DNA of 64,000 nt, taken from positions 11,473 through 75,472 of the forward strand of contig JBLYPS010000005.1 in the NCBI GenBank assembly GCA_048539495.1, read 5' to 3'. The notes beneath the pieces were generated by a model. It did not search any database. It saw nothing but the letters and a program-made list of their open reading frames with translations, and had not been told where the DNA came from. The translations under genes and the position numbers were made by a program. Shown here piece after piece: positions 34,052-63,721 of the stretch. Positions within the stretch are counted from its first letter, which is position 1. The number at the start of each line of letters is the position of its first letter. The DNA is from Dehalococcoidia bacterium (GTDB lineage: Bacteria; Chloroflexota; Dehalococcoidia; SZUA-161; SpSt-899).

Positions 34052-34237
34052 GACGCCTTTAATTGCGGAGTATCACAACCGAAGTGATGTCATCTGTTTT
34101 GAGAGGGTTCAGTGAAATGGTGCTACGTTCTTGCTTTGCCCGACAGGAAGAGAACGATAAAGCAAGCGAGATTTCCCACTCTAGCAGATTCGGGATGATA
34201 AACAACGTCAGGGAAGGAGGTTTTTGGGGGATGTAAT

Positions 34238-34251
34238 CGCAACTAATTGCA
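34238..34251 (+). promoter_or_regulatory. Candidate Fur-family operator
   Basis: CGCAACTAATTGCA. Confidence 0.45.
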
Positions 34252-34296
34252 GGAGCGAAGAAGGTTACCGAAGAATAAAACAGCAGGAGGTCACAA

Positions 34297-35868: not shown

Positions 35869-35887
35869 TCGAAGAGGAAATACGCAA

Positions 35888-36490: not shown

Positions 36491-36588
36491 GGGGAGAGAA
36501 ATGATTGAAGTGCTGGTGTGGTAAAATCCTCAGAAGAGATGGAAAATTACAAAGTAGTATTTTAAAATAATTGAAGGAGGAAATCTAA

Positions 36589-38157
36589 ATGTTAAACAAA
36601 AAAATGATTAGTTTGATTATATGTGTCCTGCTTCTTTGCACCATGTTAGCCGGTTGCGTCGAACAACAGGCAGAAGAGGTAGAGGTTGAAGTCCCGCAGG
36701 AAGTAGTTGCAGGGCTTTCCAGGGATGCTGGTGATTCCCCTCGGTTTAAAGTAAATCCATATTTAACAGGAATCCTTGAGACATTAGTTATACTGGATGA
36801 AAAAATGGAGCCTCAACCATGGTTGGCCAAGTCATGGAATGTTTCGGAAGATGGATTAACCTGGACACTTTATCTTCGTGAGGGTGTTTATTTCCATGAT
36901 GGTACACCATTCAATGCCGATGCTGTAAAGGTCAATATTGAAAGGATAGAGGATGAACGACCTGGATTCTTAGGGGAGTTACAATCGATAGAGGTGATCG
37001 ATGACTATGTAATTAAGTTTACACATAGTGAGCCGTTTGCACCTTTTATCGAGACTTTAGCGTGGGGCACTCTGTTTGCTATCGTTTCTCCAAACGCAAT
37101 CGATGAAAAAGGAAATATTATAGAACCAATTGGGACTGGTGCGTTTAAATTTTATGAACATGTCCCGGATGATAGATTAGTAATGGTAAGAAACGAAGAT
37201 TATTGGGGAGGGATACCAAAACTTGAGAAGATTACCCTGAAATCAATCCCTGACCATCTCACTCGTATAATGGCACTTGAGGCAGGCGAGGTTGATCTGA
37301 TTACATGTATCTTGCCTGAACATGCATCAATCCTGATAAACGATCCTGAGATAACGATGCTCATAGAACCGTCCTCTACATCGCATTTCCTTATATTTAA
37401 CAACAATAGAACACCTTTTGACGATGTTCGGGTGAGACAGGCAGTTCGATATGCTATCAATACGGAGACGATGGTGGAGCATGCGATGGAGGGGTTTGGA
37501 ATTGTAGGTATGGGTATAACCCCACCAAACATCGAAAGTTGGTTCCATCCAGAGATAGGTGCACCAGAGTTTAATCCAGAGAAGTCGAGAGAACTTCTGC
37601 AAGAAGCAGGCTGGGTGGATATCGATGGTGATGGAATGATGGAGAAAGATGGCGAGAAGTTTAAAGTTAGGTTTGCACTAAACACACTTTATCTTGCTAT
37701 GTATCCTCATCTGACAATGGCAGAAATAATACAAGCTCAATTGAGTGATGTTGGAATTGAAGTAGAGCTGATAGTTCTTGAAAGAGGAGCATATTTCGAT
37801 GGTTTAAGAGCGGGAGAGTTGGAAATGTGTTTTGATGCTTTTCCGTTTTTAACTGGGGAGCCCGATTTTGTTTTTTATCGGTCATTCCATTCGGAAGGGG
37901 ACTGGAATCCAAGATTTGGAATGTTCTATAACAATCCGAGAGTAGATGAATTGCTTGAGCTTGGAAAAACAACAACAAATTTTCAAGAACGAAGAGAGAT
38001 TTATCACGAAATAGAGGAAATAATCGTTGACGAGGTTCCTTTATACACACTCATGTATGGAAAGAACATCGATGCAATAAGGAATCATGTTCAGGGATCC
38101 CATAGGCATTCGATATTTGGACTTTATTGGGCAGATGTATATCTCTTGAAGAGGTAA
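36589..38157 (+). CDS. ABC transporter substrate-binding lipoprotein, family 5 #2
   Basis: Lipobox LAGC; PWLAKSW, FHDGTPFNA and IGTGAFK; visibly lower GC than its neighbours. Confidence 0.9.
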   Translation: MLNKKMISLIICVLLLCTMLAGCVEQQAEEVEVEVPQEVVAGLSRDAGDSPRFKVNPYLTGILETLVILDEKMEPQPWLAKSWNVSEDGLTWTLYLREGVYFHDGTPFNADAVKVNIERIEDERPGFLGELQSIEVIDDYVIKFTHSEPFAPFIETLAWGTLFAIVSPNAIDEKGNIIEPIGTGAFKFYEHVPDDRLVMVRNEDYWGGIPKLEKITLKSIPDHLTRIMALEAGEVDLITCILPEHASILINDPEITMLIEPSSTSHFLIFNNNRTPFDDVRVRQAVRYAINTETMVEHAMEGFGIVGMGITPPNIESWFHPEIGAPEFNPEKSRELLQEAGWVDIDGDGMMEKDGEKFKVRFALNTLYLAMYPHLTMAEIIQAQLSDVGIEVELIVLERGAYFDGLRAGELEMCFDAFPFLTGEPDFVFYRSFHSEGDWNPRFGMFYNNPRVDELLELGKTTTNFQERREIYHEIEEIIVDEVPLYTLMYGKNIDAIRNHVQGSHRHSIFGLYWADVYLLKR

Positions 38158-38301
38158 AGTCTGAAACAGTCAACTACAATTACCCATAAAGTAAAAGGGC
38201 ATAAGAAAACAGGCCATCTGTTGATGGCTTTTAAAAAAGACATAGTTCAGAACTCAGGACATTGCATGACAGTTTAGTGTGCACATTTAGTACTTTACCC
38301 C

Positions 38302-38742
38302 ATGCGGTGCGGGATAATATACGGGGATATAAGCCCCACCCTTGGTTTGTCGTCAACTGGGAAGATATCTATGTGGCGAGTGAGCATCATGATGCAACTC
38401 GGATGGCTTGATGCCGTTTCAGGGTTTGCCGAACCGGCAACAGGTCTTGTGGGACTCCCGGGCGAATCGGCAATGGTTATAGCTACTCAGATATTCGAAT
38501 ATACATCTGGCGTCGTCATCGCTGGAACGCTTCTACATAAACAAATTCTGACCCCGGTGCAAACGGTCTGCGCGCTTCTTCTGGGCGGAATCATCTCGAT
38601 GTCTGTGATGTATGTCAGGCATTCGCTGCCATCGAAAATAGCATATTTTGGGGCCAAGATGGGCACAAAGATCGCGTTTTATAATCTCATTGTCGATTTG
38701 GCTTTCACATCCATCGTGCTGATGGTATTATTGCAAATGTAA
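38302..38742 (+). pseudogene. Nucleoside-recognition (Gate) domain membrane protein, probably 5'-truncated
   Basis: GLVGLPGESAMVIA and SVMYVRHSLPSKIAYFG.K.G resemble the C-terminal half of Gate-domain proteins; no credible N-terminus. Confidence 0.55.
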
Positions 38743-38841
38743 AAGACTTATTTCTTCGAAGTATTACAAATATCATTTTTTTATGTTTGTCGTGTTACTA
38801 ATCGAAAGATATTTATTACTGCAAACCTAAAGACGATTATC

Positions 38842-40398
38842 ATGCGTAATAAAACAATCAGTTTGGTTATGTGCATCTTGCTCTTGGGGAGCATGGTGGC
38901 AGGATGTCCCCGACCGCAAGCAGAGGTAGAAGTGCCACAGGAAGTAGTTGTCGGGCTGGGGAGAGACCCCGGAGTGGCGTATGGATATGGTGCACATCCA
39001 TCGCTAACGCGCGTTCTTGAGCCATTAATCTTTAGGGATATCAAGCTCGAGCATAAACCTGGGCTTGCTACTTCATGGAAAGTATCAGATGATAGGTTGA
39101 CCTGGACCATTCAACTGCGAGAGGGTGTCAAATTTCACGACGGCACCCCTTTTAATGCTGAAGCAGCGAAACACAATCTGGAAAGGGTATCAGTGAGATG
39201 GCCTGGGCGTTTTGGACCAATCAAATCCATAGATGCTGTCGGTGAATATACAGTCAAAGTCACACATGAGGATGTTTTTGCGCCGTTTGCTTATTCGCTG
39301 GCCTGGCCTGGTGCAGCGATGATCAGCCCTGGTGTTATTGATGAGGCAGGAAAAGTCATCGAGCCAATCGGAACAGGTCCTTTTAAAAGGGTTGAATGGG
39401 TTACCGGTGAAAAAATGGTATTGGTGCGGAATGAAGATTATTGGGGGGGCAAGCCCAAGCTAGAACGAGTAACTTTAAAGTTCATTCCCGATCCAACAAC
39501 AAGAATAATGGCCCTCGAAGCCGGTGAGATAGACATGATCATCGATACCGGCGGCGTAATGCCGGAACATGTGCCCACCCTTATAATGCATCCCGAAATA
39601 GAGGTACTGACAGTTCCCGGGGCAGTTCCGCATTATATGACCCTCAATACCAAGAGTGTGTTTTTTGATGATACGCGAGTAAGAAGGGCGATAATGTACG
39701 CTATAGATCCGGAAAGTATTATCAGGTATGCACTGGAAGGTTATGGCAAGGTTATGACCACTGTTACTCCTCACTCAGAATCGGAGTGGATGCATCCAGA
39801 GCCTCTATTCCAGTTCAATAAGCCGGATAAGGCGCGAGAACTGCTGCAAGAAGCAGGATGGATAGATACTGATGGTGATGGTATACGTGAGAGGAACGGA
39901 GAAAAATTCAAGGTAACATTCCTTCTATCTACCGGTCTGGTTGGCCGCTGGCCGTACGATACTATTGCCGAGATTATACAGGCACAGCTTCGAGAAGTAG
40001 GAATTCAGGTTGAACTTCTGACAGTGGAGACAGGCCTTTGGAGTAAAAAGTTAAAGGAAGGAAAAGCGGAGATCTCAATCCGTCCCTGGGCAGCAATATC
40101 TCCCCAGGAACGCCTGCATTCGTGGCTCCATTCCGAGGGCATAAATGTCCTTGGCATGGGAATATTCTACTCAAATCAAGAGATGGATAAACTGATCAAT
40201 GAGCTTATGCGGACAACCGATGAAGGGGTGGCAAAGAGGTTAGCTTTTGAGATACAAAGAATCGCTGCCAGGGATATTCCGATAATTCCGGTATATGATG
40301 AAGTTTTGATCAACGCTGTTCGACACAACATAAGAGGATACAAGCTCCATCCATGGTTTCAGGTCAACTGGGAAGATATCTACGTAGTAGGACCATGA
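38842..40398 (+). CDS. ABC transporter substrate-binding lipoprotein, family 5 #3
   Basis: Lipobox VAGC; PGLATSW, FHDGTPFNA and IGTGPFK. Confidence 0.9.
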   Translation: MRNKTISLVMCILLLGSMVAGCPRPQAEVEVPQEVVVGLGRDPGVAYGYGAHPSLTRVLEPLIFRDIKLEHKPGLATSWKVSDDRLTWTIQLREGVKFHDGTPFNAEAAKHNLERVSVRWPGRFGPIKSIDAVGEYTVKVTHEDVFAPFAYSLAWPGAAMISPGVIDEAGKVIEPIGTGPFKRVEWVTGEKMVLVRNEDYWGGKPKLERVTLKFIPDPTTRIMALEAGEIDMIIDTGGVMPEHVPTLIMHPEIEVLTVPGAVPHYMTLNTKSVFFDDTRVRRAIMYAIDPESIIRYALEGYGKVMTTVTPHSESEWMHPEPLFQFNKPDKARELLQEAGWIDTDGDGIRERNGEKFKVTFLLSTGLVGRWPYDTIAEIIQAQLREVGIQVELLTVETGLWSKKLKEGKAEISIRPWAAISPQERLHSWLHSEGINVLGMGIFYSNQEMDKLINELMRTTDEGVAKRLAFEIQRIAARDIPIIPVYDEVLINAVRHNIRGYKLHPWFQVNWEDIYVVGP

Positions 40399-48607: not shown

Positions 48608-48732
48608 TATAGTAGAGGGAAAAATCCCGGTCACCAATAAGGGAGGTGAGAGCCAGTGACGATAACCTGAATCGAGTCAGAGTTCGTCCACACTCGCAAA
48701 AAAGTGGGCCAGAAATTAGGAGGATAACAAAG

Positions 48733-50371
48733 ATGAAGCTGACGAGAATAAAAGGAATCGCCCTACTTGTGGCTGCGGTATTGTTGCTGACGGGAGCAAT
48801 GGGTGCAATAGCAGCAGGTGGGGAAGAGAGGCGTGAGGAGTTCCGAATGGATGCTCGCTACTGGTGGGAAGCACCACCCTTAACCCCTTATGAGCGTGAG
48901 CAAGTAAGGGGGATAATGGTCTTGATACTTGACCGTTACTTTGGGATTGATGTTTCTACTATGAGCCCAGAGGAGTTCGAGGATTTGGGGAGATCGATAG
49001 GTCCCGAAAGAGAGAAGGAGGCACTTCGCCTCTTCGAGCATTACGCCAAGAAGAAGGGATTTCAAATGCCTGCAGGGATATTTGAAATGCCTGTGGGGAT
49101 CCCTGTTCCCGGGGAGTTCATACCCCCTGCTGAGGTAAGCTACTGGTGGGAATTGGTTGACCCTGAATATCGTGAGGCAAGGATTGCCTTTTTCCAGGAA
49201 ATGTTTCCAGAGGTCAATGTGAGGAATATGACGCCGGAGGAATTTGAACGTCTCCTTAACCCTCCTCCGCCTCCTCTCAGATTGCTGTCGATTGAGGAGA
49301 TGAAGGGGGAACCGGCTGTCATCGCGGTACATGGAAGAGCCCGTTCATACAGCACCCAGGCCGAGATACGAGAATGGCTCAATAGATTGCGTGAAGTGCA
49401 AGAACTCTTCGGTATTCTGAAGGGGCTAACGGGGCCATCGTTCCCTAGAATCACTGCTAGTGTTGATCCTGCCGGTTACGTCGAGGTATCGCTGACTATG
49501 TTCGAAGGCGAAGAAATGACAATTAATGATGCTCTAGCGTATGTGCCCGAAATTTATGCATTAATAGCTGAGAAGGCAGAGACACTCGACATCAAGGATG
49601 TTCCGGTCGTATTTCGCTTGATAAGAATAATGACAGGACTTTAGTACAGCGACCAGTCCAACCATTGAGGTGGCAATAGCTCCGCAGACAACCCTCCTGG
49701 GTTATGGCGCAAGATATCGCCCTATAATTGGCGGAATTCAGAAGCAGACACGTATTGCGTGGAGATTATCGACAATAGGCTTCGCAGTTCGGCGTCCAAT
49801 CCCGTGGTGGCCTGATGATCTAGACTATGTCATCACCGGACACCTTGGCCCTAGCAATACGCGAACGCCTGTAAATACGCAGATATACCAGCCAACAGTA
49901 GCGTCGGGAAACGAAGTCGGCAGGGTTGCAGCCGTTGCAAGCATGAATGGCTTTGCGGATGTAGCTCGGGTAGCCATTGACAATTGGCATGTCGCCCCAT
50001 ATATCCATATCGGAGGTGGGCACACGGTAGCCGTAAGGGCTTGGGGAGATCCAGTTGAGCACCAGTGGGTCAGTAAATCTGGAATCGCAACCGGCGTTAC
50101 TATTGGGCGGGTAATTAGAACAGGTGTTCCAGAGAACAACCTTGCCTTCGGCACTCTCCAAAACCAGGTTAGAGTAGCTTTTAGAATGACTCCCGGAGAC
50201 AGTGGCGCCCCCGTTTACAGACACAGGAACGGCTGGGCCGAGGGGGTGGAGATACTAGGGATCCTCTGGGGTTGGGCAGAGGATGGGGCAGGCAACTTTT
50301 TATACTCCATCTTTTCACCAACATCGGGAGTAAGAGCTGAACTACCAGGATGGCAACCGCACACGAAATAA
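48733..50371 (+). pseudogene. Secreted S1 protease paralog A, split by one extra base at ~49639-49642
   Basis: Signal peptide, YWWE repeats and DVPVVF prodomain; removing one T from CTTTAG joins it to RYRPIIGG...TGHLG...FADVARV...PGDSGAP. Confidence 0.85.
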
Positions 50372-50450
50372 TTTGCCGTCGTCCCCAATATGGAAAACCT
50401 TAGGGGAAATCCTGGGGCATAATACTTGAGGTTGTTTCAACGGTTCGGAA

Positions 50451-50515
50451 GACACAATACCTATTTCTTCCAAGGCGAGCGAGTTGCCCGCCGATGGTGA
50501 GATAGGTATTGTGTC
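50451..50515. repeat. 65-bp MITE-like element with 14-bp perfect terminal inverted repeats
   Basis: GACACAATACCTAT ... ATAGGTATTGTGTC. Confidence 0.65.
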
Positions 50516-50576
50516 CCGGGTTTCGATAACGTTATAATCAACACGGCAGCAATATTAAGCTGTCGGAGGTTGCCAG

Positions 50577-51137
50577 GTGCAAGATGAACAGGATATTGTC
50601 CACCGGGCGCAAAGGGGAGACAAAGAGGCTTTGGCGCAACTTTACGAGACCCATTTTGACAAGGTGTATCGTTACGTAAGGCTCAGAATAGGAAACCGGA
50701 CAGAGGCAGAGGACGTTACCCAGCAGGTCTTTCTGAAGGCAGTTGGGTTTATTTCCACCTTCAAGTGGAAGGGCATACCCTTCGCTGCCTGGTTATTTCG
50801 TATTGCTCACAATGAGGTGGCCGACCATTGGAGAAAGGAAAGCAAGCAGGGAACGGTTCCTCTTAACGAATCGCTGACGAGAGCCAACAGTAGCGCCGGC
50901 AACCCGCATTTGGTGGCAGAACACCAGTCGGATATTGAGCAGCTAATGACAGCGACGAAGAGGCTGACTAAGGCACAGCGCGAGGTGATTTCCCTTCGCT
51001 TTGCCAGTGAGTTGTCTATCGCACAGGTGGCAAGTGTTATGGGTAAAAGTCAGGGGGCGGTGAAGGCATTGCAGCATAGTGCGATTGTCGCTTTGCGCGA
51101 AGCACTGTTAGTGGGAGAGGATAATGAAGAGAGGTAA
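50577..51137 (+). CDS. ECF sigma factor (sigma-1', near-identical duplicate of 47059-47619)
   Basis: Same length with only a few substitutions (DI>DV, GS>GF, TG>NS); DNA 47012-47629 aligns with 50530-51147. Confidence 0.9.
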   Translation: MQDEQDIVHRAQRGDKEALAQLYETHFDKVYRYVRLRIGNRTEAEDVTQQVFLKAVGFISTFKWKGIPFAAWLFRIAHNEVADHWRKESKQGTVPLNESLTRANSSAGNPHLVAEHQSDIEQLMTATKRLTKAQREVISLRFASELSIAQVASVMGKSQGAVKALQHSAIVALREALLVGEDNEER

Positions 51138-51147
51138 AGAAAACATC
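51124..51147 (+). pseudogene. Anti-sigma 5' stub (MKRGKEN) cut off by the repeat element
   Basis: Matches MKRGKEDI at 47606, then switches to the 110-bp repeat. Confidence 0.75.
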
Positions 51148-51152
51148 TCCGT

Positions 51153-51263
51153 GCAGCAATTCTCTCCTGACAAAAGCCCATCTGGCATCTGCCGAATTCT
51201 CAAGCTTCTTGGGGTAGGGGCGAATTTATTCACTCTGTCGGGGGAGGCTAAAGCCTCCCCTAC
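51153..51263 (+). repeat. Second copy of the ~110-bp REP-containing element
   Basis: Aligns with 46810-46922; GTAG at 51214. Confidence 0.85.
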
Positions 51264-51299
51264 ACATAGAACTACTACCTCACTGCACGGGAAAGGCCG

Positions 51300-52613
51300 T
51301 TATTGCGCTGGGTCTGAGATTGAACCGCTCTTTGCCATCTCACGCATCCTGTCGATGAGCCGCTCGTTATAGGGCAGCAGCGCCATCGCGGTAGTCCTAG
51401 AATCGGAGGGCCCCAGCCTGTCCCCGTGAAAAGTAACATAGGCGGCGATTCCACCGTCGGGGTTCTGCATACTCCACAGCCTGGCCTCAATCTGAGGACA
51501 GTCGATTGGTATATCCAGAACCCTGCTGGCGTAGAGAATCAGGGCCAGCTTATGGGTGGCATAGATACCCTCTCTCCTGGTCGCGGCATCGTATATTCCC
51601 TTCCCATCCCACATCGAATATGCCTGATGGAAGTACTTCCTCGCCGCCTCTCCCTCGCCGCGCAGGTGTTGATTCAGCGATTGATAGATGAGCATGTCGC
51701 CGTAATCCTGCCAGGATAGCGGCATCGGCGAATCGTGGAATCGGGCGATAATCAGGAACTCGGCCTCCCTGGCCACCACAACCTCATTGGCGATGGAGAT
51801 ATCCCTCGGTATCGGCTCGCCAAAGAGAACCTCAAATAGCCGGCTCGGCCGCTGGGCGTAGCGCCGCAGTGTTTGCGCTATCTCTTGAGCCATCTCCGCA
51901 TCGAACGGCTGGAGGACATACGAGGCGATCAGGTTATCGGGATAGAGCCAGTATATCTGGTCATAACGATATTGCCGGCTACCCACCATCCTGAAGCCAG
52001 GTTCCTTGCTCTGAAAGATAAGCCCAACCTCGGGATTGAAGCTGGACCTGAGGTAATCCACCGCCCTGGCGATTTGCTGGTCGCGGTCCACTTTGTCGGC
52101 AAGTGCAACCTCCGCGCCTTTTACTGGTGCGGCGTCAAGTCCAGCCACCTCAACCAAGCGCTCGATTTGGGGCGGCTCCGATACTGGTGCTACTTCCATT
52201 TCCTCGTCCACGTCCTTCTCGATCAATCCCACCCCCACCGGGGCCGGTGCGATCATCCGCGGGACGATGAGGGCCAGGGCCACCACCAGAAAGATGGATA
52301 GTCCCGCCGCCAGCGCCGGGCGATGCCGCAACCATAGCGCCGAGAAGGCTCCGGTGATGACGGAGATCCAACCTGGTGACCTCTCCAGTTCTACTCTCTG
52401 CAGGCGAACAAGGAAACCGGGAGCCGGCTCGATGCTTTCCCAGTATCGGGGAACCTCTTGCCTCAAGCGGACATCCAGTTTGCTGACGCTCTCCAGTTCA
52501 TTAGCGCAATCCTGGCAACTCTGGAGATGCCCCTCAAAGGCATTGAGGTCATTGCCCCGGAAGGCGCCGGCTAAGTATTCTGCCAATCTCTCCCTGACCT
52601 GGTGACACTTCAT
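51300..52613 (-). CDS. Zinc-finger (zf-HC2/ZAS) membrane anti-sigma factor with a large extracytoplasmic domain
   Basis: MKCHQVRERL...HLQSCQDC (HxxxCxxC), TM helix ALAAGLSIFLVVALALIV, and a helical C-domain with LWSMQNPDGG; TAATG coupling to sigma-3. Confidence 0.85.
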   Translation of the reverse strand: MKCHQVRERLAEYLAGAFRGNDLNAFEGHLQSCQDCANELESVSKLDVRLRQEVPRYWESIEPAPGFLVRLQRVELERSPGWISVITGAFSALWLRHRPALAAGLSIFLVVALALIVPRMIAPAPVGVGLIEKDVDEEMEVAPVSEPPQIERLVEVAGLDAAPVKGAEVALADKVDRDQQIARAVDYLRSSFNPEVGLIFQSKEPGFRMVGSRQYRYDQIYWLYPDNLIASYVLQPFDAEMAQEIAQTLRRYAQRPSRLFEVLFGEPIPRDISIANEVVVAREAEFLIIARFHDSPMPLSWQDYGDMLIYQSLNQHLRGEGEAARKYFHQAYSMWDGKGIYDAATRREGIYATHKLALILYASRVLDIPIDCPQIEARLWSMQNPDGGIAAYVTFHGDRLGPSDSRTTAMALLPYNERLIDRMREMAKSGSISDPAQ

Positions 52614-53182
52614 TATCTATCACCCCCCTCTAAATATAGACGTAACAAGCGGTATGATTCGCTCAGTATCCTTCTTACGGTTCCCACAGGACGGTTCAAG
52701 GTACGGGCTATTTCATCGGTGGAGGCATCCTCGGAGTAGTGCAGCATGATGACCAGGCGGTGCAGCTCCGGCAGCCTGGTGATCGCTTCATGAAGGTCGA
52801 GGGCAAAATCCTGTCTGCTCTCCGCAGGATTATGAGACATCGCCGTTTTGTGTATGGAGATGGTGGCTTCGACAGCCTTGCGCTCTCGCTGCCTCTTGCG
52901 CAGGAGGTCATAGGCCCTGGTGGTAACTATGCGGCCGAGCCAGGAGCCAAAGGAGCCCTCCTTCTCCAGTTTCTTGATAGACTTATAGGCGGTGATGAAG
53001 GCTTCCTGCACCGTGTCCTCGGCGTCGCTCTGGTTCCGGAGGATGGCGAAGGCAATACGGTAGGCTCGCGGTGCATGAGTCTCCATCAGTTGCCCGAAAG
53101 CCTCCCTGTCGCCTGCCCTGGCCCGGCGAATCAAGGTTATTTCTTCATGGAGGAAGTTCTCGTTCAATAGATCTGCCTTCAA
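52613..53182 (-). CDS. ECF sigma factor (sigma-3)
   Basis: DAEDTVQEAFITAY, SFGSWLGRIV, LPELHRLVIMLHY and PVGTVRR. Confidence 0.92.
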   Translation of the reverse strand: MKADLLNENFLHEEITLIRRARAGDREAFGQLMETHAPRAYRIAFAILRNQSDAEDTVQEAFITAYKSIKKLEKEGSFGSWLGRIVTTRAYDLLRKRQRERKAVEATISIHKTAMSHNPAESRQDFALDLHEAITRLPELHRLVIMLHYSEDASTDEIARTLNRPVGTVRRILSESYRLLRLYLEGGDR

Positions 53183-53233
53183 GAAACCCTTCTGCTGAGA
53201 TTATACGCCAGTGCGGAAAGCAATCGCAAGCGG

Positions 53234-53299
53234 GTGAGCAGAACCGGTCGTTCCAAGCGTCTTAAATATACCTAACTTTTTGGCGTCTGCTTCGTTATA
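53234..53299 (+). promoter_or_regulatory. Tandem ECF-type promoters P2 then P1
   Basis: GTGAGCA-N17-CGTC (53234-53261) followed by CCTAAC-N16-CGTTATA (53271-53299). Confidence 0.7.
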
Positions 53300-53441
53300 T
53301 ATTATAGAGGGGCAAAAATGTGGATAAGGTATGGGGGCAAACGGGGAAGTGGGGGGTGTGCTTTCAGGAGGTGATAACGATGTAAGAATGAGATCGAGTA
53401 GGGGGCGACTCCAGGGAAGAAGAAAAAGGAGGGAAAAGAAA

Positions 53442-54419
53442 ATGAAAAAATGGTGGTTAGTGATCAGTCTGGTAGTCGTGATTGCCATGCTCGGTGCGGG
53501 GGGGCTTGTGGCTTTCCATGGTAATCAGCAGGTGGCGGATTATGGCTACGGTGCTGAGGTAGATGGTGATGTCACCGCTGAGGGGGATACTAATCTGGCC
53601 GCTGAGGAACTAACACTAACAGCACTAACATCTGATGTCTACATGCCTAACCCCGAGCACACGAAAGCCTATGAAAAACTGTTTGAGGCTATACCTTATA
53701 TGAACGCCCAAGGTATACCTGTGGTAGATTTTTGCCGACGCCACTGTGGGACAGACCCCGAGACGGGCGCCACTCAGATCATGGTTATCTTGGTAGGGCT
53801 CAGAGAGGTGAGGGACGAGTATAAAGAGGCCATAAAAGCGATAGTGGAGGGCGTTGATGGCATAGAATTCGACTTCTTCCAGGCCGAATTTACCAGGGAG
53901 GAAATTTGGGGCTGGCAAGATAAGATTTGGGGAACATTCTCACGTCCCTGGGACCTTCCGCCGGGCATAATAGAGGTTCCTGTATCCGGGACAAGCTCAT
54001 CATGGAGGGATCAGATAATAGGGGTTCAACTTGCTGGGGAGGTAAGGCCAGAGTATATCGAGGCCATTAAAGCCGTAGTTGGCAACGAAGCTCCGCTCAA
54101 CTTTCAGGGCGGAGGCTCCGTGCGTCACCACACCCGCTATTGGCAAGAAAAGTGGGACCCTGATGAGATGATGGAAAAACAAGTGATGTTGCATGTCTTT
54201 GCGCTGCTCTTTCCCGACGTTGAGTTATCGAGTATGCGCATCGGGGAAGTTGAGGAGTTCATTAAGGGATTAAGCGTCGAGGAAGCAACAGAGCTTATTC
54301 GCAAGCTCCTTGATTATGCCCTTGAGCGAGGGTTAGTAACGCCGTTAGTAACCCCGGAGGAGCGGCAGGAATTAGAAGAAGAAATGCTGCAACATTGGCT
54401 GGAATGGAGGCAAGAGTAG
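53442..54419 (+). CDS. Secreted or membrane-anchored protein with two prodomain-like modules and a C-terminal RYW domain; no protease domain
   Basis: N-terminal hydrophobic helix; repeats EYKEAIKAIV and EYIEAIKAVV; the C-terminal RYWQE...LFPDVELSSM...E aligns by eye with RYWWE...YFGIDVSTMSPEEFE. Confidence 0.75.
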   Translation: MKKWWLVISLVVVIAMLGAGGLVAFHGNQQVADYGYGAEVDGDVTAEGDTNLAAEELTLTALTSDVYMPNPEHTKAYEKLFEAIPYMNAQGIPVVDFCRRHCGTDPETGATQIMVILVGLREVRDEYKEAIKAIVEGVDGIEFDFFQAEFTREEIWGWQDKIWGTFSRPWDLPPGIIEVPVSGTSSSWRDQIIGVQLAGEVRPEYIEAIKAVVGNEAPLNFQGGGSVRHHTRYWQEKWDPDEMMEKQVMLHVFALLFPDVELSSMRIGEVEEFIKGLSVEEATELIRKLLDYALERGLVTPLVTPEERQELEEEMLQHWLEWRQE

Positions 54420-54585
54420 ATGGAATCGTTGTCTCTTTCGTTATATATTATAGAGGGGCAAATCATGGTCGCCACGAAGGGAGGTGAGCGCCAGTGATGA
54501 TAAGCTAAATGTGGTCAGGTGAGCTGGGAGTTCGTCCACACTCACAAAAAGTGGGCAAAAACATAAGAAACGGAGGGTAACAAAA

Positions 54586-56338
54586 ATGAAACTGAAGGGA
54601 ATAAAAGGGATCGCCTTGCTTGTGACTGCGCTGACCTTGCTGGTAGCACCACTGGCTGCAATAGCAGGAGAGGGTATTAATGGGGAATTCAGACCGACGA
54701 CAGGGGAAGGATGGGAATGGGACGCTCGCTATTGGTGGGAAGTGCCGCCTTTAACTGCTTATGAGCGTGAGCAGATGAGGGAGATAATGACCCTGATATT
54801 TGACCGTTACTTCGGAATTGATATCAGCAGGATGAGCCCACAAGAATTTGAGGACGTCGGGACATCGATAGGTCTTGAAGGAGAGAAGAAGGCACTTCGC
54901 CTCTTTGAGCATTACGCCAGGGAGAGGGGATTTCAAATGCCTGCAGGGATATTTGAAATGCCTGGGGAGAGACCCATTCCCGGGGAGTTTATACTCCCGG
55001 TTGATGTAACCTACTGGTGGGAACTGATATACCCTCAATACCGCGAGAAGGAGATTGCCATAATGCTACAGCTTCATCCAGAGCTCAATCGTTATGATCT
55101 GCTGAATATGACGCTGGAGGAGTTTCAACGTCTCCTTAACCCACCTCCGCCTCCTTTGAGATTAAGATTGGTCACGAGAGAAGAGATAGAAGAGTTGGTC
55201 GCGAGAAACCCCTATGTCATTGCAGTATACGGAAAGCTCCGAGCGTATGATACCCAGGCTGAGATAAAAGAGTGGCTCGAGAGATTGGAGGAAGTGCAGG
55301 ACCTTGCGCTCATCCTTATTCTTGAACTAACCACGGCACCACTCACTTCCCTTGGCGTTGGTGCGGGTTACATCTCAGTAGGGTTGTGTATGGACACAGT
55401 GACCGCTGATGAGGCTCTTCTACGGTATGTGCCTGAAGTTCATGCCGTGATATCTGAGGAGGCGGAGACATTCGGCATCTACGATGTTCCCGTAAAATTT
55501 TCGCTTGGCGGACGCATACGATTCGATCTAGGGTACGATATAGGGTGCATAGCGGTACATGCGGATGTTGCAACTCAATCGGGGGCAGTTAGCTCCGCTC
55601 CCGGTTGGTGGCCCTTCCCAGGTCGCATCCCAACTGATCCGAGAGACCACCCCCATGCTCTCATAATTGGTGGGCTTCGCCATGCGATACGCGGGGAGAC
55701 AGGATGGGCCACAACAAGGCTTCGTAGTGCAAAGGCCAATCCCCTTCTGGTGGGATGATGAGGACTATCTCATCACTGGACACTTTGGTCCTGGCAGATT
55801 GCCCGGTACAACCCCTGTAAATCGGGTCGTGTACCAACCAGGGCATCCGCACAACGCCGGGCAGGTTGCAGCAGTCGCACCGTTGGGTGGTTTTGCGGAT
55901 GTAGCCCGAGTGGCAATTGCCGACAGGCGTGTCAACCCCCCATATGTCCATCTGGGGGATCCCGGAATGGATGGCAAAAAGCCAGTTCTCGGCTGGCTGG
56001 ATGATGTACACCGGCAACACGAGCTCTGGATGTCTGGGGCAAGGAGTGGCCTACAATTTGGGCGCGTACATTGGACAAGGAGAGACATAGTTTGCCCCGT
56101 CCGAGGAACTTTTCTCCGGGATCAGGTCTGGGCAGATTATCATGCCGATCCTGGAGATAGTGGCGCTCCCATTCTCCACCCTATGTCAAGGATCGTTGGC
56201 GGCGAGATAACGCGAGGAGTGGCAGTATTAGGAATCCACTCCGGTAGAAAAGTGTACCAAGGTAGGGTATATCGCTTCTTTTCCCCAATATCTGGGATAA
56301 GAACTGAACTGCCAGGATGGTATCCATACACGAGATGA
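54586..56338 (+). pseudogene. Secreted S1 protease paralog B, split by one extra A at ~55716
   Basis: ACAACAAGGCTTC versus ACAACAGGCTTC (TTGF, as in paralog E); triad motifs TGHFG, FADVARV and PGDSGAP are intact. Confidence 0.85.
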
Positions 56339-56419
56339 TTTGCCGCTGTCCTTGACCGAGGGGCATTAATAATTGACCCCAGAGCTATATACGCTGACGC
56401 AGAAAAACGAGCGCAAGTG

Positions 56420-56447
56420 ATGAGCAGAATTATGTGTTCCAGACGTC
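56420..56447 (+). promoter_or_regulatory. ECF-type promoter, class P2
   Basis: ATGAGCA-N17-CGTC upstream of paralog C. Confidence 0.6.
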
Positions 56448-56585
56448 TCACATATAGAGGCCAACATACCAGTGCCCGCCTCGCTTTTGATGGAAGGGGG
56501 CGATGGTTATGTGAAAACGAAACTATAACGGGGAGCTCGTCCACACTCGCAAAAAAGTGGATAAATACAAGGGAGAGTAACAACA

Positions 56586-57638
56586 ATGAGACCGAAGGGA
56601 ATAAAAGGGATCGCTTTACTCGTCGCTGCGGTATTGCTGCTGGTGATTCCAATGGTTGCAATACCGGCAGCAGGTGGGGAAGAGAGGGGGGAGGGGTTCC
56701 GAGTGGATGCTCGCTATTGGTGGGAAGACCCGTATTTGACTGCTTATGAGCGTGAGCAGGTAAAGGAGATAATGGTTTTGGTATTTGACCGTTACTTCGG
56801 GACCGATGTCTCTGCTATGAGCCCTGAGGAATTCGAGGAGGTAGTGTTATCGGTAGGACCTGAACCTGAGGAGATATTCCGTCTGTTTACGCAATATGCG
56901 GAGAAAAGAGGGTTTGAAATCCCTGGGGAAATACCTGAGGAAGTACCTGACCCCCCTGTGGAGGACCGATGCGCGTATATTGCTCGTATAATGGCTGCCG
57001 ATGTAAGGTATCGGGAGTTATCGCCTGCCGATGTAACCTATTGGTGGGAACTGGTGGGGACTGAATGCCGTGAGGCAACAGTTGCGGCGGTGCGGGAACT
57101 GTTCCCCGAGATAGATGTGGTAGATGTGGTGAGTATGTCACCTGATGAACTGAATCTCCTGCTTAATCCCCCTCCTCCTCCACTTAGGCTGTTATCCATT
57201 GAGGAGAGAAGGGAGAAGCGCCCAACCACCATTATTGCGATATACGGAAGGCCCCGCACATATGAAAGTGAGGTTGAGGTGCGCGAGTGGCTTGGCAGAT
57301 TGCGAGGCATAGAGGAGAAAATCTTTCCCTGGGCTTACGATAACACAGGCAAGGTAATCATGTTTGGAGTTTGTCACGCCGGCTACCTCAGTGTGGGGTT
57401 GAATTTAGATAGGCTGACGAGAGATGAGGCTTTGGCATTTGCCGCCGAAGCATATCCGATACTAGCTGAAATGGCAAAGGCGGCGGGTGTCGACGATGTT
57501 CCGGTCGTATTCGAGCTCTGGGCAATAAGGACTACTACATTACGGCATGAAAGAATCCGTCCCATAGACGGCGGGATTCGGATGAGCAGGCAACTGGCTG
57601 ATTACTGCCTTCTCACCAATGACTGGGGTAACAAATGA
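56586..57638 (+). pseudogene. Paralog C: prodomain only, protease domain replaced by unrelated sequence
   Basis: Homology ends at RHERIRPIDGGIRM (~57585); 57590-57868 is unrelated sequence. Confidence 0.8.
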
Positions 57639-57916
57639 GCTGGATCCCTTCATTCCCTATACAATTTTCTGTCCGTAGGAGAATTGAGATGCTGGCTCCT
57701 CGGTGAGTGTAGAGGGGCCAGTATCTTTCTTTTGCAATGAAAATAAGGCAGAGAGCTGGAGGAATTGCCACAAAACAACGCAGTTAAAACCTTTGAGAAG
57801 ACCAAGCTGGTAGTTTGGGGTACAACTAACTCTGAGCGGGATTGCCTGTTCCACATGTCTTGTATACAACACTCGCAAAAAGCGGGCAAGAAACTAAGAA
57901 ACGGAGGGTAACAAGA

Positions 57917-59662
57917 ATGAGACTGAAGGGAATAAAAGGGATCGATTTACTCGTCGCTGCGGCATTGTTGCTGATAGCATTAATGGGTGCAATAGCAGCA
58001 GCGGGTGGGGAAGAGAGACGTATTGATGTGGAGGACTTTAATTGGGATGCTCGCTATTGGTGGGAGGCGCCACCTTTAACCCCTTATGAGCGTCAACAGG
58101 TAAAGGAGATAATGGTCTTGATACTTGACCGTTACTTCGGAACTGATGTCTCTGCAATGAGCCCAGCAGAATTCGAGGAGTTGGGGGAGTCGCTAGGCCC
58201 CGAAAGAGAGAAGGAGGTGCTTCGCCTCTTTGAGCGTTACGCCGAGAAGAGGGGATTTGAAATCCCTCCAGGGCTATTTGAAATGCCTGTGGAGGTACCC
58301 GCTCCCGATGAGCTCATACCCCCTGCTGGGGCACGCTACTGGTGGGAACTGGTGGACCCTGAATATCGCGAGAATGCAATTGCCTTCGCCAAGAAGCACA
58401 TTCCAGAGATGCTTCGCTACTACTGGCAGCTCGCCACGGAGGAAGGGTTTGAAGTGCCGCCGGGCATGCCTCGTCCTGAAGAAGTCGATGTGATGAGATT
58501 GACACCGGAGGAGTATGCCCTTATTCTTAACCCACCTCTGCCTCCCCTCAGATTGCTGACGATAGAGGGGATAATAGAGGAGATGAAGGGAAGACCGTGG
58601 TTCGTTGCGGCATACGGAAGAATCCCGTCATACAATACCCAGACCGAGATACGAGAATGGCTCGACAGATTGCGTGAACTGAAAGACCTTATCGTGCCCC
58701 CCCCAGGGACACCATGGATACTACCACCGGCTACAGGCTTCATTGCGATTTCTAGTGACGGTTACCTTGACGTGGGGCTGAATAGGGACAAAATGGACAA
58801 ATTGAGAATCAATGAGGAGGCTCTGGCGCTTGCATTCGAAATTTATGCGCTGATATCTGAGAAGGCAGAGACGCTTGGCATGCAGGATGTTCCGGTCCTA
58901 TTTACCCTCACCAGAACTGGTGGCTTGGATGGTATTACAGCTCAACCCCATCAGGTGATAGATCCGGAGATAACCGCCGTGCAGCAAGCGGGCTACCGCG
59001 AAAGATATCGCCCCATAATTGGTGGGATTTTGATGACAATTGATGCATGGGGAGCGACAGTAGGCTTCGCAGTTCGAGATCCAATCCCGTGGTGGCCTGA
59101 TGATTTAGACTATGTCATCACCGGACACCTTGGTCCTCCCTTTGGCTCGCCAAGCCCTGTAAATACGCAGGTATACCAGCCAACAGTAGGACCCGGAAAC
59201 GAAGCCGGCAGGGTTGAAGATGTTGCAAGCATGAATGGCTTTGCGGATGTAGCCCGGGTGGCGATTCACAATTCGGATGTCGACCCATATATCCATGTAG
59301 GAGATGGCGCAAAGGTGCCGGTAAAGAGTTGGCGAGATCCACATATGCACGAGTGGGTCATAATGTCCGGGGTCGTAAGTGGCTACACTCAAGGGAGGGT
59401 ACTTCAGACAGGTGTTACATTACCTCAGGGCCACAACCCCGCCTTCGGCGCTCTCCGAAACCAGTTTATAGCAGCTTATGCACGCTCTGGAGGAGACAGT
59501 GGTGCCCCCATTTTCAGCTTCCTTGCGGGCTGGGAAGTAGAGATATTCGGAATCCATGTGGGTTCGATTGAACACCACGGTGTCATACGCCCCTACTTTT
59601 CACCAACATCGGGAGTAAGAGTTGAACTACCAGGATGGTATCCGTACACGAAATCCCCTTGA
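57917..59662 (+). CDS. Secreted S1 (chymotrypsin/alpha-lytic-like) protease paralog D, intact
   Basis: 581 aa: signal peptide, YWWE repeats, DVPVLF prodomain, TGHLG, FADVARV and GGDSGAP. Confidence 0.88.
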   Translation: MRLKGIKGIDLLVAAALLLIALMGAIAAAGGEERRIDVEDFNWDARYWWEAPPLTPYERQQVKEIMVLILDRYFGTDVSAMSPAEFEELGESLGPEREKEVLRLFERYAEKRGFEIPPGLFEMPVEVPAPDELIPPAGARYWWELVDPEYRENAIAFAKKHIPEMLRYYWQLATEEGFEVPPGMPRPEEVDVMRLTPEEYALILNPPLPPLRLLTIEGIIEEMKGRPWFVAAYGRIPSYNTQTEIREWLDRLRELKDLIVPPPGTPWILPPATGFIAISSDGYLDVGLNRDKMDKLRINEEALALAFEIYALISEKAETLGMQDVPVLFTLTRTGGLDGITAQPHQVIDPEITAVQQAGYRERYRPIIGGILMTIDAWGATVGFAVRDPIPWWPDDLDYVITGHLGPPFGSPSPVNTQVYQPTVGPGNEAGRVEDVASMNGFADVARVAIHNSDVDPYIHVGDGAKVPVKSWRDPHMHEWVIMSGVVSGYTQGRVLQTGVTLPQGHNPAFGALRNQFIAAYARSGGDSGAPIFSFLAGWEVEIFGIHVGSIEHHGVIRPYFSPTSGVRVELPGWYPYTKSP

Positions 59663-59719
59663 TGGGGTTGATGGGGAAACCTAAGGGGAATCTAAATCTA
59701 GGAGATAAATATTAGTGCC

Positions 59720-59798
59720 CCGCAAAAATCTTTGAATTTTTGCGGCGACCCCAGAGTCATTCTCCCCAAAAAGTCTTCGACTTTTTGGGGAGAACTAC
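59720..59798. repeat. Double hairpin between array genes (terminator- or REP-like); also at 61775-61853 and 63778-63856
   Basis: CCGCAAAAATCTTTGAATTTTTGCGG and TTCTCCCCAAAAAGTCTTCGACTTTTTGGGGAGAACTAC. Confidence 0.85.
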
Positions 59799-59830
59799 AT
59801 ACGTGTTGACGCAGAAAGCAAGCGCAAGTG

Positions 59831-59857
59831 GTGAGCAGAATCGTCTATCCCAGCGTC
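59831..59857 (+). promoter_or_regulatory. ECF-type promoter, class P2
   Basis: GTGAGCA-N16-CGTC upstream of paralog E. Confidence 0.6.
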
Positions 59858-60005
59858 TTATATATAGAGGCCAAAATTTAATGGCTGCGGCTGCCTCGCC
59901 CTTGATCGAAGGAGGTGATGGTTATGTGATAAGGAAACTATAACCGGGAGTTCGTCCATACTCGCAAAAAAGTGGGCAAAAAATAAGAAACGGAGGGTAA
60001 CAAGA

Positions 60006-61719
60006 ATGAAGCGGAAGGGAATAAGAACCATCGTCTTGCTTGGGGTTGTGGCATTGTTGCTGATAGCATTAATGGGTGCAATAGCAGCAGCGGGTGGGGA
60101 AGAGAGACGTATTGATGTGGAGGACTTTAATTGGGATGCTCGCTATTGGTGGGAGGCGCCACCTTTAACCCCTTATGAGCGTGAGCAGGTAAAGGAGATA
60201 ATGGTCTTCATATTTGACCGTTACTTCGGGATCGATGTCTCTACCATGAGCCCAGAGGAGTTCGAGGACTTGGGGAGGTCGATAGGCCCCGGAAGAGAGA
60301 AGGATGTACTTCTCCTCTTCGAGTATTACACCGAGAAGAGGGGATTTCAAATGCCTCCGGGGATATTCGAAATGCCTGTGGACATATCTGTTCTCGAGGA
60401 GTTCATGCCCCCTGCTGAGGTAAGCTACTGGTGGGAACTGGTAGACCCTGAATACCGTGAGGCAAGGATTGCCTTTTTCCAGGAAATATTCGGGGAAAGG
60501 TTTGAAAGGTATCCCGAAGAATTCCCATTCGCAGAAGTGAACGTGAGAAATATGACGCCGGAGGAGTTTGAACGTGCCCTTAGTCCGCCTCTGCCCCCTC
60601 TCAGATTGCTAACGATCGAGGAGATAAAGAGGGAAGGTCCGGCTATCATCGCGGTATACGGAAGACCCCGATCATACACTGCCCAGACCGAGATACGAGA
60701 ATGGCTCGATAGATTGCGTGAAGTGCAGGAACTCTTCATACAGCAAGTGTTTCCGGAGACGCCAGCACCTACGCGACTATTCCCCATAAACCAGATTGGT
60801 ATTCGCTACGGTTTCCTGGTCGTGGGACTGTGTAAGGAAGAATTAACAATCAATGAGGCTCTAGCTCTTGCATCCCACATTTATGCGCTGGTATCTGAGA
60901 AGGCAGATAGACTCGGTGTCCAGGATGTTCCGGTCGTATTTAGCCTCATCCGGAGGGCTGTGCTGGATATAGCTGAACCCCATCAGGTCGCACCTCCGCA
61001 GACAACACGCCCCCCATGGGTGCCCCCCGTGGGTCCAGCCTTCGTACTACCTAAGATTTCGTCCTATACCGGGTGCGGTTTTGATGGCGACACGTTATCT
61101 GCCGACGGGAGCTGCAACGACAGGCTTCGCGGTTATACGGCGAATCGCCTGGTGGCCTGATGATCTAGACTATGTCGTCACCGGACACCTTGGTCCTCGC
61201 CGTACGCGAACGCCTATAGGTATGCCGATATACCAGCCAAGGGTAGCCCCGGGAAACGAAGCCGGCACGGTTGAAGCTGTTGGAAGGATGCATGGATTTG
61301 CCGATGTAGCCCGGGTGGGGATTGCTAATCGCGATGTCGTCCCATATATCCATATAGGAGGTGGCTCCAGGATACCGGTAAGGAGTTGGCGAGATGCACA
61401 TTGGCCTGAGTGGGTCAGCAAGTCCGGGGCCGCAACTGGTGACACTCAAGGGAGGGTAGTTACCAGGCAACCTATTAAGGTATGGAACCCCGCCTTAGGC
61501 TCGCTCCAAAACCAGGTTTTAGCAGCTTACGCATCCGCTGGGGGAGATAGTGGCTCCCCCGTTTTCTTATTCGGTCCCACCGGGGGAGTATACGCAGTGA
61601 TAGTGGGAATCCACTGGGGTCGGGCACCTTGCCCGATAACAGGCATCGATAGGGCTACGTTTTCACCAATATCGGGGATAATGACCGAACTATCCGGATG
61701 GGAACCACACACGAAATAA
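60006..61719 (+). pseudogene. Secreted S1 protease paralog E, split by one extra base in the linker (~61005-61030, C6 runs)
   Basis: The prodomain frame drifts off; the +1 frame reads YYLRFRPIPG...TGHLG...FADVARV...GGDSGSP. Confidence 0.85.
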
Positions 61720-61932: not shown

Positions 61933-62071
61933 TCATATATATAGAGGCCAACATACCAGTGCCCGCCTCGCCCTTGATCGAAGGAGGTGATGGTTATGTG
62001 ATAAGGAAACTATAACCGGGAGTTCGTCCATACTCGCAAAAAAGTGGGCAAAAAAAAGGAGGGTAACAAGA

Positions 62072-63721
62072 ATGAGGCTCAAGGGAATAAAAGGCATCGC
62101 CTTACTTATAGCTGCGGTATTGTTGCTGGTGATTCCAATGGCCGCAATACCAGCAGCGGCTGGAGAAGAGAGGCATGAGGAGTTCCGATGGGATGCTCGC
62201 TACTGGTGGGAAGCACTACCGCTTTCTCCCCATTATCAGCAGCAAGTGAGGGAGATAATGGTCTCGGTATTTGACCGTTACTTCGAGACTGATATCTCCG
62301 CTATGAGTCCACAGAAACTCGAGGAGTTGTGGAATGCGATAGATTGTGAAAGCCGAGAAAAGGTGCTGTGTCTCTCTGCACAATATGCCACAACGAAGGG
62401 GTTTCAAATACCCGGAATGCCTACTCCGAGGGAGGAGTTCATACCCCCTGCTGGTGCAACCTACTGGTGGGAGTTTGTGGACCCTGAACTGCGTGAGGGC
62501 GCAATTGTTGGGGCAAAGGAAGACATTCCAGAGGCGCTTCGCTCCGTCTGGGAGCTTACTGAGTGGAAGGGAGTTGAACTGCCCATACCTCGTCCTGAGA
62601 ACCTTGATGTGATGAGATTAACACCAGAGGAATATAATCTCATCCTTACCCCTTCATTCCCTCTTGGAAGGATAGGAGTTGAGGAGTGGATAAATAGATA
62701 TTTTCCGGGTGTTGATATCATTGCAACATTCGGGAGAACTCGCGCATATAGCAATCCAGCAAAATGGTTCGATAGATTGCGTGAAGTAACCGAGCTCACG
62801 TCTCCACTTTTCCTTCCCTTGATGAAAAGTAAATCTGGAATTTGGACGAAGGGGATTGACGCTTCCGGTTATATTAGTGTGTGGTTGGATTGCAGGAAGT
62901 TGACAAGGTGCGAGGCGGTGGCGATTGCTCCCAAGATTTATGCCATGATAGCTACAAAAGCAGAGATGGTTGGTGTTCAGGATGTTCCGGTCGTTATTGT
63001 CCTCAGGTGGATTGAAGTCCACCTAGCTGGATCGAAAGACCCGCGCGGCTACCTAGGGACACCCCTACCCCTTGACCAGAAATTCCGCCCCATACCCGGT
63101 GGAGCCCAAGTGAAGGGGAGATCATGGCACGCGACAGCGGGCTTCCCGGTTCAGAGGCCAATCGTGTTTTGGTGGGATGACAAAGACCTTACGACCACCG
63201 GACATCTTGGGGGCCCCCCTGTCCCTATAAACACGCGGGTGTACCAGCCAACGGAACTGGGGGGAAATAAAGTCGGCACGGTTGCCGGTGTTGCAAGCCG
63301 TGGAGGATTTGCAGATGTTGCGCGCGTAGCCACCCCCGATGGGAATGTCATCCCATACATTCGGGTAATGACCTTCTGGACATCCCCGGTAACAGGTTCG
63401 CGAGATCCAGCGCTGCATGAGTGGTCTGGCAAATTTGGGAGGACCACCGGTCGTACCTCCGGCCGCATACTTAGTGTGAATCGAGATACGTACAATCCTG
63501 CATTTGGCGTTCTCCAAGACCAAGTTTGGACAACTATTAGAGTAGAGCCCGGAGACAGTGGTTCTCCCCTTTTCATAAGCGCCGCCGGGGGTGGAGTGGC
63601 AGTAACAGGAATCGCCTGGGGTTTCTTATATTGCCCTCACATTGGCCGGATCGGCCTCTTTTCACCGGTATCGGGAGTAATGACTGAACTGCCAGGATGG
63701 AGACCATTCACGAGGAGATAG
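62072..63721 (+). CDS. Secreted S1 protease paralog F, intact
   Basis: 549 aa: signal peptide, YWWE repeats, DVPVVI, TGHLG, FADVARV and PGDSGSP. Confidence 0.88.
   Translation: MRLKGIKGIALLIAAVLLLVIPMAAIPAAAGEERHEEFRWDARYWWEALPLSPHYQQQVREIMVSVFDRYFETDISAMSPQKLEELWNAIDCESREKVLCLSAQYATTKGFQIPGMPTPREEFIPPAGATYWWEFVDPELREGAIVGAKEDIPEALRSVWELTEWKGVELPIPRPENLDVMRLTPEEYNLILTPSFPLGRIGVEEWINRYFPGVDIIATFGRTRAYSNPAKWFDRLREVTELTSPLFLPLMKSKSGIWTKGIDASGYISVWLDCRKLTRCEAVAIAPKIYAMIATKAEMVGVQDVPVVIVLRWIEVHLAGSKDPRGYLGTPLPLDQKFRPIPGGAQVKGRSWHATAGFPVQRPIVFWWDDKDLTTTGHLGGPPVPINTRVYQPTELGGNKVGTVAGVASRGGFADVARVATPDGNVIPYIRVMTFWTSPVTGSRDPALHEWSGKFGRTTGRTSGRILSVNRDTYNPAFGVLQDQVWTTIRVEPGDSGSPLFISAAGGGVAVTGIAWGFLYCPHIGRIGLFSPVSGVMTELPGWRPFTRR

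Follow-up and report, generated by a model that had tools for sequence, protein, structure and literature searches.

Protease-domain lesions at the pro-region boundary in a tandem array of secreted serine proteases from a groundwater Dehalococcoidia

A protease array and its alleles in groundwater

The window, that is the whole 64,000-nucleotide stretch of DNA analysed here, belongs to a 1.86-Mb, 80-contig metagenome-assembled genome (MAG) of a groundwater Dehalococcoidia. Between 47 and 64 kb, on the + strand, it carries a tandem array of paralogous genes for secreted serine proteases, seven of them (A to G) when the copy beyond the window end is included; the array adjoins genes for an extracytoplasmic function (ECF) sigma factor and an anti-sigma factor. 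The paralogs share one plan: behind a signal peptide come a pro-region of about 330-360 residues and a disordered linker of some 50 residues, followed by a chymotrypsin-fold domain that is closest to alpha-lytic protease. Paralogs D (57842-59662, 606 amino acids), on which the numbering and the AlphaFold model are based here, F (62072-63721, 549 amino acids) and G (C5:77124-78770 of the genome, just past the window end) are intact, and the cluster also holds a conserved protease-less paralog of 362 amino acids (53331-54419), which has 536 amino acids in the related genomes G002 and G003. The protease domain of A, B, C and E is out of frame or missing, and these lesions are the subject of the present work.

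The pro-region ORF of A, signal peptide included (48646-49644), ends at a TAG made by an extra T (GGA CTT TAG T, with TTT at 49640-49642), and its protease domain follows in the +1 frame at 49641-50371 (ORF 49670-50371). In B (pro-region ORF 54586-55758), an extra A at 55716 changes ACA ACA GGC into ACA ACA AGG C, so that the protease domain (55718-56338, ORF 55667-56338) is again read in the +1 frame. E goes out of frame past the junction of its pro-region ORF (60006-61160): the +1 shift lies between APPQTT and YYLRFRP, in one of the two C6 runs of the linker (61010-61015 and 61023-61028), and the protease domain is found at 61036-61719 (ORF 61081-61719). The original prediction had assigned a +1 shift to each of these three genes and considered their downstream catalytic triads intact. 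Three-frame translation agreed with it exactly; A and B moreover differ from Illumina contigs by a single base, at 49640 and 55716, and the TGH (His), ADVARV (Asp) and GDSG(A/S)P (Ser) columns are conserved, in this order, in A, B, D, E, F and G, including the shifted halves of A, B and E.

Paralog C had been described as truncated at RPIDGGIRM. Its reading does stop soon after this motif and the protease domain is missing, which leaves a pro-region-only ORF of 350 amino acids (56586-57638), but the lesion is more complex than a truncation. Over residues 1-336 the protein aligns with the same positions of the full-length orthologue P0012 (59% identity), and a remnant of the last 30 codons, in the +1 frame at 57586-57678, matches residues 518-547 of the same protein (60% identity, E = 2e-11). 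Because both parts align with P0012, C has, as read from its sequence, lost about 180 codons, the whole catalytic triad among them, through an internal out-of-frame deletion. The deletion junction (57585-57591) is a 7-nt microhomology, AGCAGGC, common to both breakpoints of the full-length allele, and the event is therefore a microhomology deletion.

The AlphaFold2 model of D is of moderate confidence (pLDDT 62 overall, low for residues 414-480). It comprises a confident alpha/beta module at residues 160-360, a low-confidence stretch at 360-407, which is the 48-residue linker and holds a conserved (R/K)P-I-x-GG motif at 392, and a beta-rich protease domain at 408-606; the module that precedes the linker in the models has the order beta-alpha-beta-beta-alpha-beta. 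Foldseek searches with the C-terminal domain of D gave alpha-lytic protease (2lpr/2alp), Thermobifida protease A (TFPA) and Streptomyces griseus SGPA/B as top matches with E values of about 1e-7 (2lpr_A: E = 9e-8, target TM 0.62), together with many other S1E entries, as expected of a double beta-barrel chymotrypsin fold. Sequence searches were less informative: D, F and either half of A had no match among Pfam and NCBIfam profiles, and phmmer against the PDB sequences returned nothing significant (only 1hpg, E = 3.2). NCBI labels some of the homologues 'S1 family peptidase'. All database homologues come from MAGs, mostly labelled Dehalococcoidia, and among the 41 related genomes searched the family was seen solely in the window's own genus. 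The 330-360 N-terminal residues may be called a prodomain by their position and by analogy with alpha-lytic protease.

For comparison we used eight public groundwater runs from two studies, six of DNA and two of RNA (X1 to X8, X1 and X7 being the RNA runs), which are Illumina data as judged by their Nextera adapter ends. They were examined as Logan contigs, which were assembled independently of the MAG, have depths of about 40-1200, and report the presence of an allele, not its frequency or phase. In A, the intact allele has TT and the broken one TTT: the extra T is present in the window and X6 and absent from X1, X3, X4, X5 and X8, while X2 is mixed with the broken form in majority and the X7 contigs break at the site in a bubble, which is also a mixed state. 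The extra A of B is found in the window, X2 and X5 and is absent from X3, X4, X6, X7 and X8; the X1 contigs break at 55695/55717 and are mixed, and an intact B protein, P0015, is present in the protein database. The deletion allele of C occurs in the window, X2, X6 and the NCBI metagenome contig L028, which is 99.6% identical to the window. Full-length C was seen in X4, X5, X7 and X8, and the contigs of X1 and X3 end at the branch point. The X7 contig departs from the window at 57591 (GGCGGATGGTCAATGAACC..., reading SRRRMVNEPG), as do those of X4 and X8, continuing for about 900 nt past this position; this overhang agrees with the ...SRRRM(T/I)..EP of the orthologues. On the other side, an X5 contig joins the window at 57585 (...GAGAAGAGATGA), coming from ...GIQWGVRRDE. 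A protein search for a full-length C of the same species found only orthologues of other species (P0012 and P0018), and from the contig overhangs we infer that such a same-species allele exists.

The intact D of the window is also polymorphic. A C8 tract in its pro-region (58697-58704, encoding VPPPG) is C8 in the window, X1, X2, X3, X5 and X6 and C7 in X4, X7 and X8, where the shift at codon 286 leads to a stop after residue 312. The original prediction that the long prodomains have no breaks therefore stands for the window but not for D in these three samples. The frameshift of E, which L028 shares, is the same in all eight runs, and no intact E allele was seen in any of them. A second frameshift in E (+G behind 61268) is carried by X2 and, as a minor form, by X5, and X1 and X3 are without it. 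An in-frame 6-nt deletion in the E pro-region (60695-60701) was observed in X4, so the pro-region of this frameshifted gene varies without loss of frame. F and G had no coding indel in X2, X4, X5 and X6.

Since the broken alleles recur in independent assemblies and intact ones are found elsewhere, the lesions are real polymorphisms. Each of A, B, C and D exists in the aquifer population as an intact and a loss-of-function allele, by mutational routes that differ: single-nucleotide insertions in A and B, a microhomology-mediated deletion in C and slippage of the C8 tract in D. The combinations of lesions differ by sample. X2 resembles the triple-lesion haplotype of the window, A, B and D seem intact in X3, and the MAG consensus is probably one haplotype uniting the lesions of A, B and C. 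Both states can be met within one sample (A in X2 and X7, B as a bubble in X1, C as a branch in X1 and X3), and a strain mixture would look identical. Loss-of-function polymorphism is modestly raised in the array, with 4-5 events per 10 kb against 3 per 40 kb in the flanks (P = 0.01-0.03).

Position of the lesions and competing explanations

In D numbering, the four lesions of the window fall at residues 363, 380, 400 and 407, all inside the linker at 360-407. When the first lesions of the species are taken together, 4/5 lie in a junction window of 60 residues, or 9.9% of the length (binomial P = 4e-4); this junction window was chosen post hoc, after the data had been seen. An independent set of lesions was obtained from six-frame searches of four congeneric MAGs and from the contigs that encode short database homologues. 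As this set comes partly from protein matches of at least 192 residues and is blind to very early breaks, its statistics were calculated on residues 190-606. In the other species, 6/11 first lesions are at the junction (P = 0.002), 5/11 in the protease domain and 0/11 in the pro-region (P = 0.004), and the 16 first lesions overall are divided into 10 at the junction, 5 in the protease and 1 in the pro-region. The junction lesions comprise a C-like gene of G002 and G003 truncated just after RPIPGG, without a 3' remnant, a frame change between residues 358 and 405 (L014), a frameshift at 359-363 (L031), another within the IIGG motif (L032), a truncation at about residue 360 (L033) and a nonsense mutation with an in-frame stop at about 413 (L030). 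Those of the protease domain are in L017, L020, an H-type copy, L034 (deletion of 473-585) and L035. The tree leaves the orthology of the window's C and the C-like gene of G002/G003 undecided; they were counted as separate events because only the former keeps a 3' remnant.

Pairwise comparison of the paralogs gave dN/dS values of 0.36-0.54 for the pro-regions, that of E included; for the protease domains they are 0.75-0.92 in A, D and E and 0.43 in F and G. The paralogs have diverged little at synonymous sites (dS 0.38-0.5), and their dN is high. A near-identical 5' coding stretch common to D and E points to gene conversion, and linker length varies among the paralogs.

Given these data, we lean, with modest confidence, towards a recurrent and ongoing loss of protease domains in which selection spares the pro-region ORF. 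The protease domains of this redundant, fast-evolving array would be dispensable or costly and, being under relaxed or diversifying selection, would be lost repeatedly; lesions destroying the pro-region would be purged, and alleles that end cleanly at the linker would survive and, as their ORFs predict, have the whole pro-region exported. If alpha-lytic protease is a guide, the free pro-region could then work in trans as a foldase or an inhibitor of the sister proteases. The alpha-lytic pro-region is also a tight inhibitor of its mature enzyme. As for its role in folding, the alpha-lytic protease pro-region is necessary for it and acts in cis or in trans (PMC2289522). Among the options of the original prediction, a silenced protease with a retained prodomain is thus the best supported, through the accumulation of lesions at the junction, the avoidance of the pro-region in the other species and the existence of protease-less paralogs, with the role of the free pro-region still hypothetical.

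Several points weigh against this reading. The population lesion of D, at codon 286, sits within the pro-region. The C-like pro-region-only gene of G003 is itself broken in two at about D residue 240, as would be expected of a decaying gene and not of a retained one. The relatives are known from fragmentary MAGs, three of which (G002-G004) are nearly identical, so that lesions shared by these were counted once. Gene conversion among the conserved 5' parts could also mend pro-region lesions without any selection. Signs of relaxed constraint in the protease half of E are weak and depend on the outgroup: a relative-rate test gave 35 against 23 unique changes (P = 0.15), and the Fisher P value is 0.045 with D as outgroup and 1.0 with F. 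This half had no substitutions between L028, the sole other assembly, and the window. Finally, the function of a free pro-region as inhibitor or foldase is argued by analogy; a fold search with the model of the C protein found no significant match in the PDB, and the alpha-lytic pro-regions 3pro_C and 4pro_C surfaced only at E = 0.8-1.2.

Much of the same evidence can be read as neutral birth-and-death decay, in which redundant paralogs are lost, the proline-rich linker with its C runs is mutable or tolerant of indels, gene conversion maintains the 5' parts, and the products have no function. The lesion of E in the C6 runs and that of D in the C8 tract would be expected under such a process, and so would the differing linker lengths, the mosaic of near-identical 5' stretches in D and E, the second frameshift that E gains in X2, the terminal branch of C in the pro-region tree, the longest of any paralog of the window, and the variability among runs of a G8 tract in the mrp gene. 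It accounts less well for junction events that do not involve slippage (TT to TTT, A to AA, nonsense, and deletions with their left end at the junction). Moreover, the whole pro-region of 355 residues is spared, with 1/16 first lesions, and not just its converted 5' end, and its dN/dS stays at 0.36-0.54 even in E. We therefore regard neutral decay as unlikely, although it deserves to be taken seriously. A more adaptive version of protease loss, speculative and in our opinion quite unlikely, invokes evolutionary conflict: exported pro-regions would serve as inhibitors or immunity factors against the proteases of kin or competitors, or as trans-foldases, and the loss of the protease would be an adaptive 'cheating' on a public good, with frequency-dependent selection keeping on and off alleles for years. 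If true, it would explain the junction lesions, the spared pro-region and the dN/dS of 0.75-0.92 in the protease domains.

That A, B and D each have on and off alleles side by side, at times in one sample (A in X2 and X7, B in X1), might also suggest phase variation, in which reversible slippage in short repeats toggles single proteases and cells express different subsets. D does vary at its C8 tract, and both G/C runs of at least eight bases in the window are polymorphic in length, but the lesions of A and B lie in runs of 2-3 bases, which are not hypermutable tracts, the deletion of C is irreversible, and E is identical in all samples. Since, in addition, neither paralogs nor orthologs conserve the tracts, the genome has a MutS homologue and the equally polymorphic mrp G8 makes tract instability look generic instead of dedicated to the array, phase variation is highly improbable. 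Slippage as proposed by the original prediction is right in the loose sense that on and off alleles of A-D coexist, but only the C8 of D and, weakly, the C6 of E are slippage-prone. Leaky or programmed +1 ribosomal frameshifting would let some full-length protease be made, the lesions tuning its dosage. A +1 slip at GGA CUU UAG U in the broken allele of A does enter the protease frame, and this CUU-U-plus-stop is the arrangement of the prfB site; the CCC CCC of E is a known +1-prone proline context, and its protease half is free of stops, with the triad preserved. The prfB site reportedly has a Shine-Dalgarno-like stimulator three bases upstream of CUU. Such a stimulator is not found three bases 5' of the CUU of A, whose AGGA directly abuts it, and the site of B (ACA AGG) is not slippery. 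The three sites, moreover, differ among the paralogs instead of being conserved, the in-frame intact alleles of A and B, which dominate most samples, lack them, and E acquires a further frameshift in X2, which makes this explanation hardly plausible. To an artefact of sequencing or assembly of the MAG, through insertion-biased errors or a chimeric consensus, we give next to no chance. A, B and C are indeed intact in several other samples, and mrp (G8) and thrS (a substitution cluster with a stop) of the window also look damaged in comparison with other runs. Against this, identical broken alleles were assembled independently from Illumina data of further samples and of a second study (A in X6 and X2, B in X2 and X5, C in X2, X6 and L028, E in all runs and L028), and the flanking sequence has nearly no indel disagreement: compared with four Illumina runs, window positions 1-20000 have one indel, in a repeat, and 20001-40000 have three. 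With only four indels in these 40 kb the assembly is not insertion-prone, and the insertion-biased error considered by the original prediction does not hold. Restoration of the full-length ORFs of A, B and E by accurate reads had been named there as the result that would refute the breaks in these genes. The outcome is mixed: A, B and C are restored in some samples and E never, and the broken alleles are confirmed as well.

Neighbouring genes and other variation in the window

Several features around the array vary in their own right. The protease-less paralog has, in G002 and G003 (L013 3754-5364; L019 2993-4603), an additional middle part that is pro-region-like, and the copy in the window seems to have been shortened internally. 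The ECF sigma gene has a second copy at 50530-51300. In several runs, the contigs depart from the window at 51147/51148 and continue with a full anti-sigma sequence (CTGGATGAATGTTTAGAACGACTGCTGGTC, reading ...LDECLERLLV), so the truncated anti-sigma stub of the window is either a structural variant or a repeat-collapse artefact. Most of the remaining indels of the array sit in intergenic leaders. In the conserved leaders 5' of the Shine-Dalgarno sequences of E and F, poly-A tracts (59860-59978, A6/A6; 62050-62057, A8) are length-variable between runs (+AA, -1, A8 to A7).

Outside the array, a G8 tract at 32748-32755 throws the mrp gene of the window out of frame in the P-loop (GKGG|IGKS) of an Mrp/ApbC-like ATPase; the tract is G7 in X2, so that GKGGIGKS is restored, and both lengths are seen in X5 and X6. 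The genome has 41 G/C runs of at least eight bases, and the two in the window, mrp G8 and D C8, are the length-polymorphic ones referred to above. Loss of mismatch repair was considered as a cause of tract instability and rejected, as judged on MutS alone, since a MutS_V homologue is present. X5 carries a 20-nt insertion (TTCGATAGCGAACTTGAGGA) at 33298, near the 3' end of the mrp-like ORF. In thrS, seven clustered substitutions at 12319-12355, among them a stop codon at 12331-12333, distinguish the window from X2 and X4, which have no stop, and the contigs of X3 and X5 are interrupted from 12323 to 12456. The difference has the look of a patch that varies by strain, or of a locally chimeric consensus, and not of an indel. 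At 36669-38880, a joint going back 2212 nt with 38 additional letters is common to X4, X5 and X6 and points to a tandem duplication or a rearrangement variant.

Significance and comparison with known systems

Apparent 'frameshift errors' of a MAG are here real, sample-specific alleles, and annotation pipelines would drop or mis-repair such genes. The array also offers a rare population-level view of a family of secreted enzymes losing catalytic domains and keeping pro-regions in an uncultured subsurface bacterium. If the free pro-regions were active, they would show how stand-alone protease inhibitors or foldases can arise in bacteria from S1-type enzymes, and would be a natural case of polymorphism in public-good enzymes.

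Loci whose expression is switched by sequence changes offer one comparison. The phase-variable contingency loci of Neisseria, Haemophilus and Campylobacter turn on and off by one base in a homopolymer run, and the C8/C7 of D and the G8/G7 of mrp likewise vary by one base across samples; unlike in these loci, most lesions of the array lie outside long tracts, one is a deletion, E is invariant and the tracts are not conserved. The broken allele of A resembles the +1 frameshift of prfB (release factor 2, RF2) in that CUU U is followed by a stop and the +1 frame gives the full protein. It differs from it in that the site comes from a recent insertion, is missing in most alleles and in the other paralogs, and has its Shine-Dalgarno-like element off the spacing reported for prfB.

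The closest relatives in architecture are the preproenzymes of alpha-lytic protease and the streptogrisins (MEROPS S1E), which are likewise secreted, combine a chymotrypsin fold with a His-Asp-Ser triad and a GDSG motif, and carry a large N-terminal region between signal peptide and protease. The N-terminal region of the array proteins is about twice as long as that of alpha-lytic protease (330-360 against 166 residues) and has no significant match to its pro-region in sequence or fold; unlike the S1E preproenzymes, moreover, the array domains have no Pfam or NCBIfam match and belong to a tandem array of seven copies that neighbours ECF sigma and anti-sigma genes. The outcome proposed for C, E and the broken alleles, pro-region-only proteins encoded as separate genes, is known from the stand-alone propeptide-like inhibitors of MEROPS family I9 (yeast PBI2 and Pleurotus POIA1), which derive from subtilisin (S8) propeptides and whose inhibition has been measured. 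In the array, an S1 protease is the parent, the truncations either are recent or still segregate, and the activity of the pro-region is hypothetical. Thus, gene-family pseudogenisation and stand-alone propeptide-like proteins are both of a kind already known; what is new is a consistent domain-boundary pattern that is present as standing polymorphism in a subsurface population.

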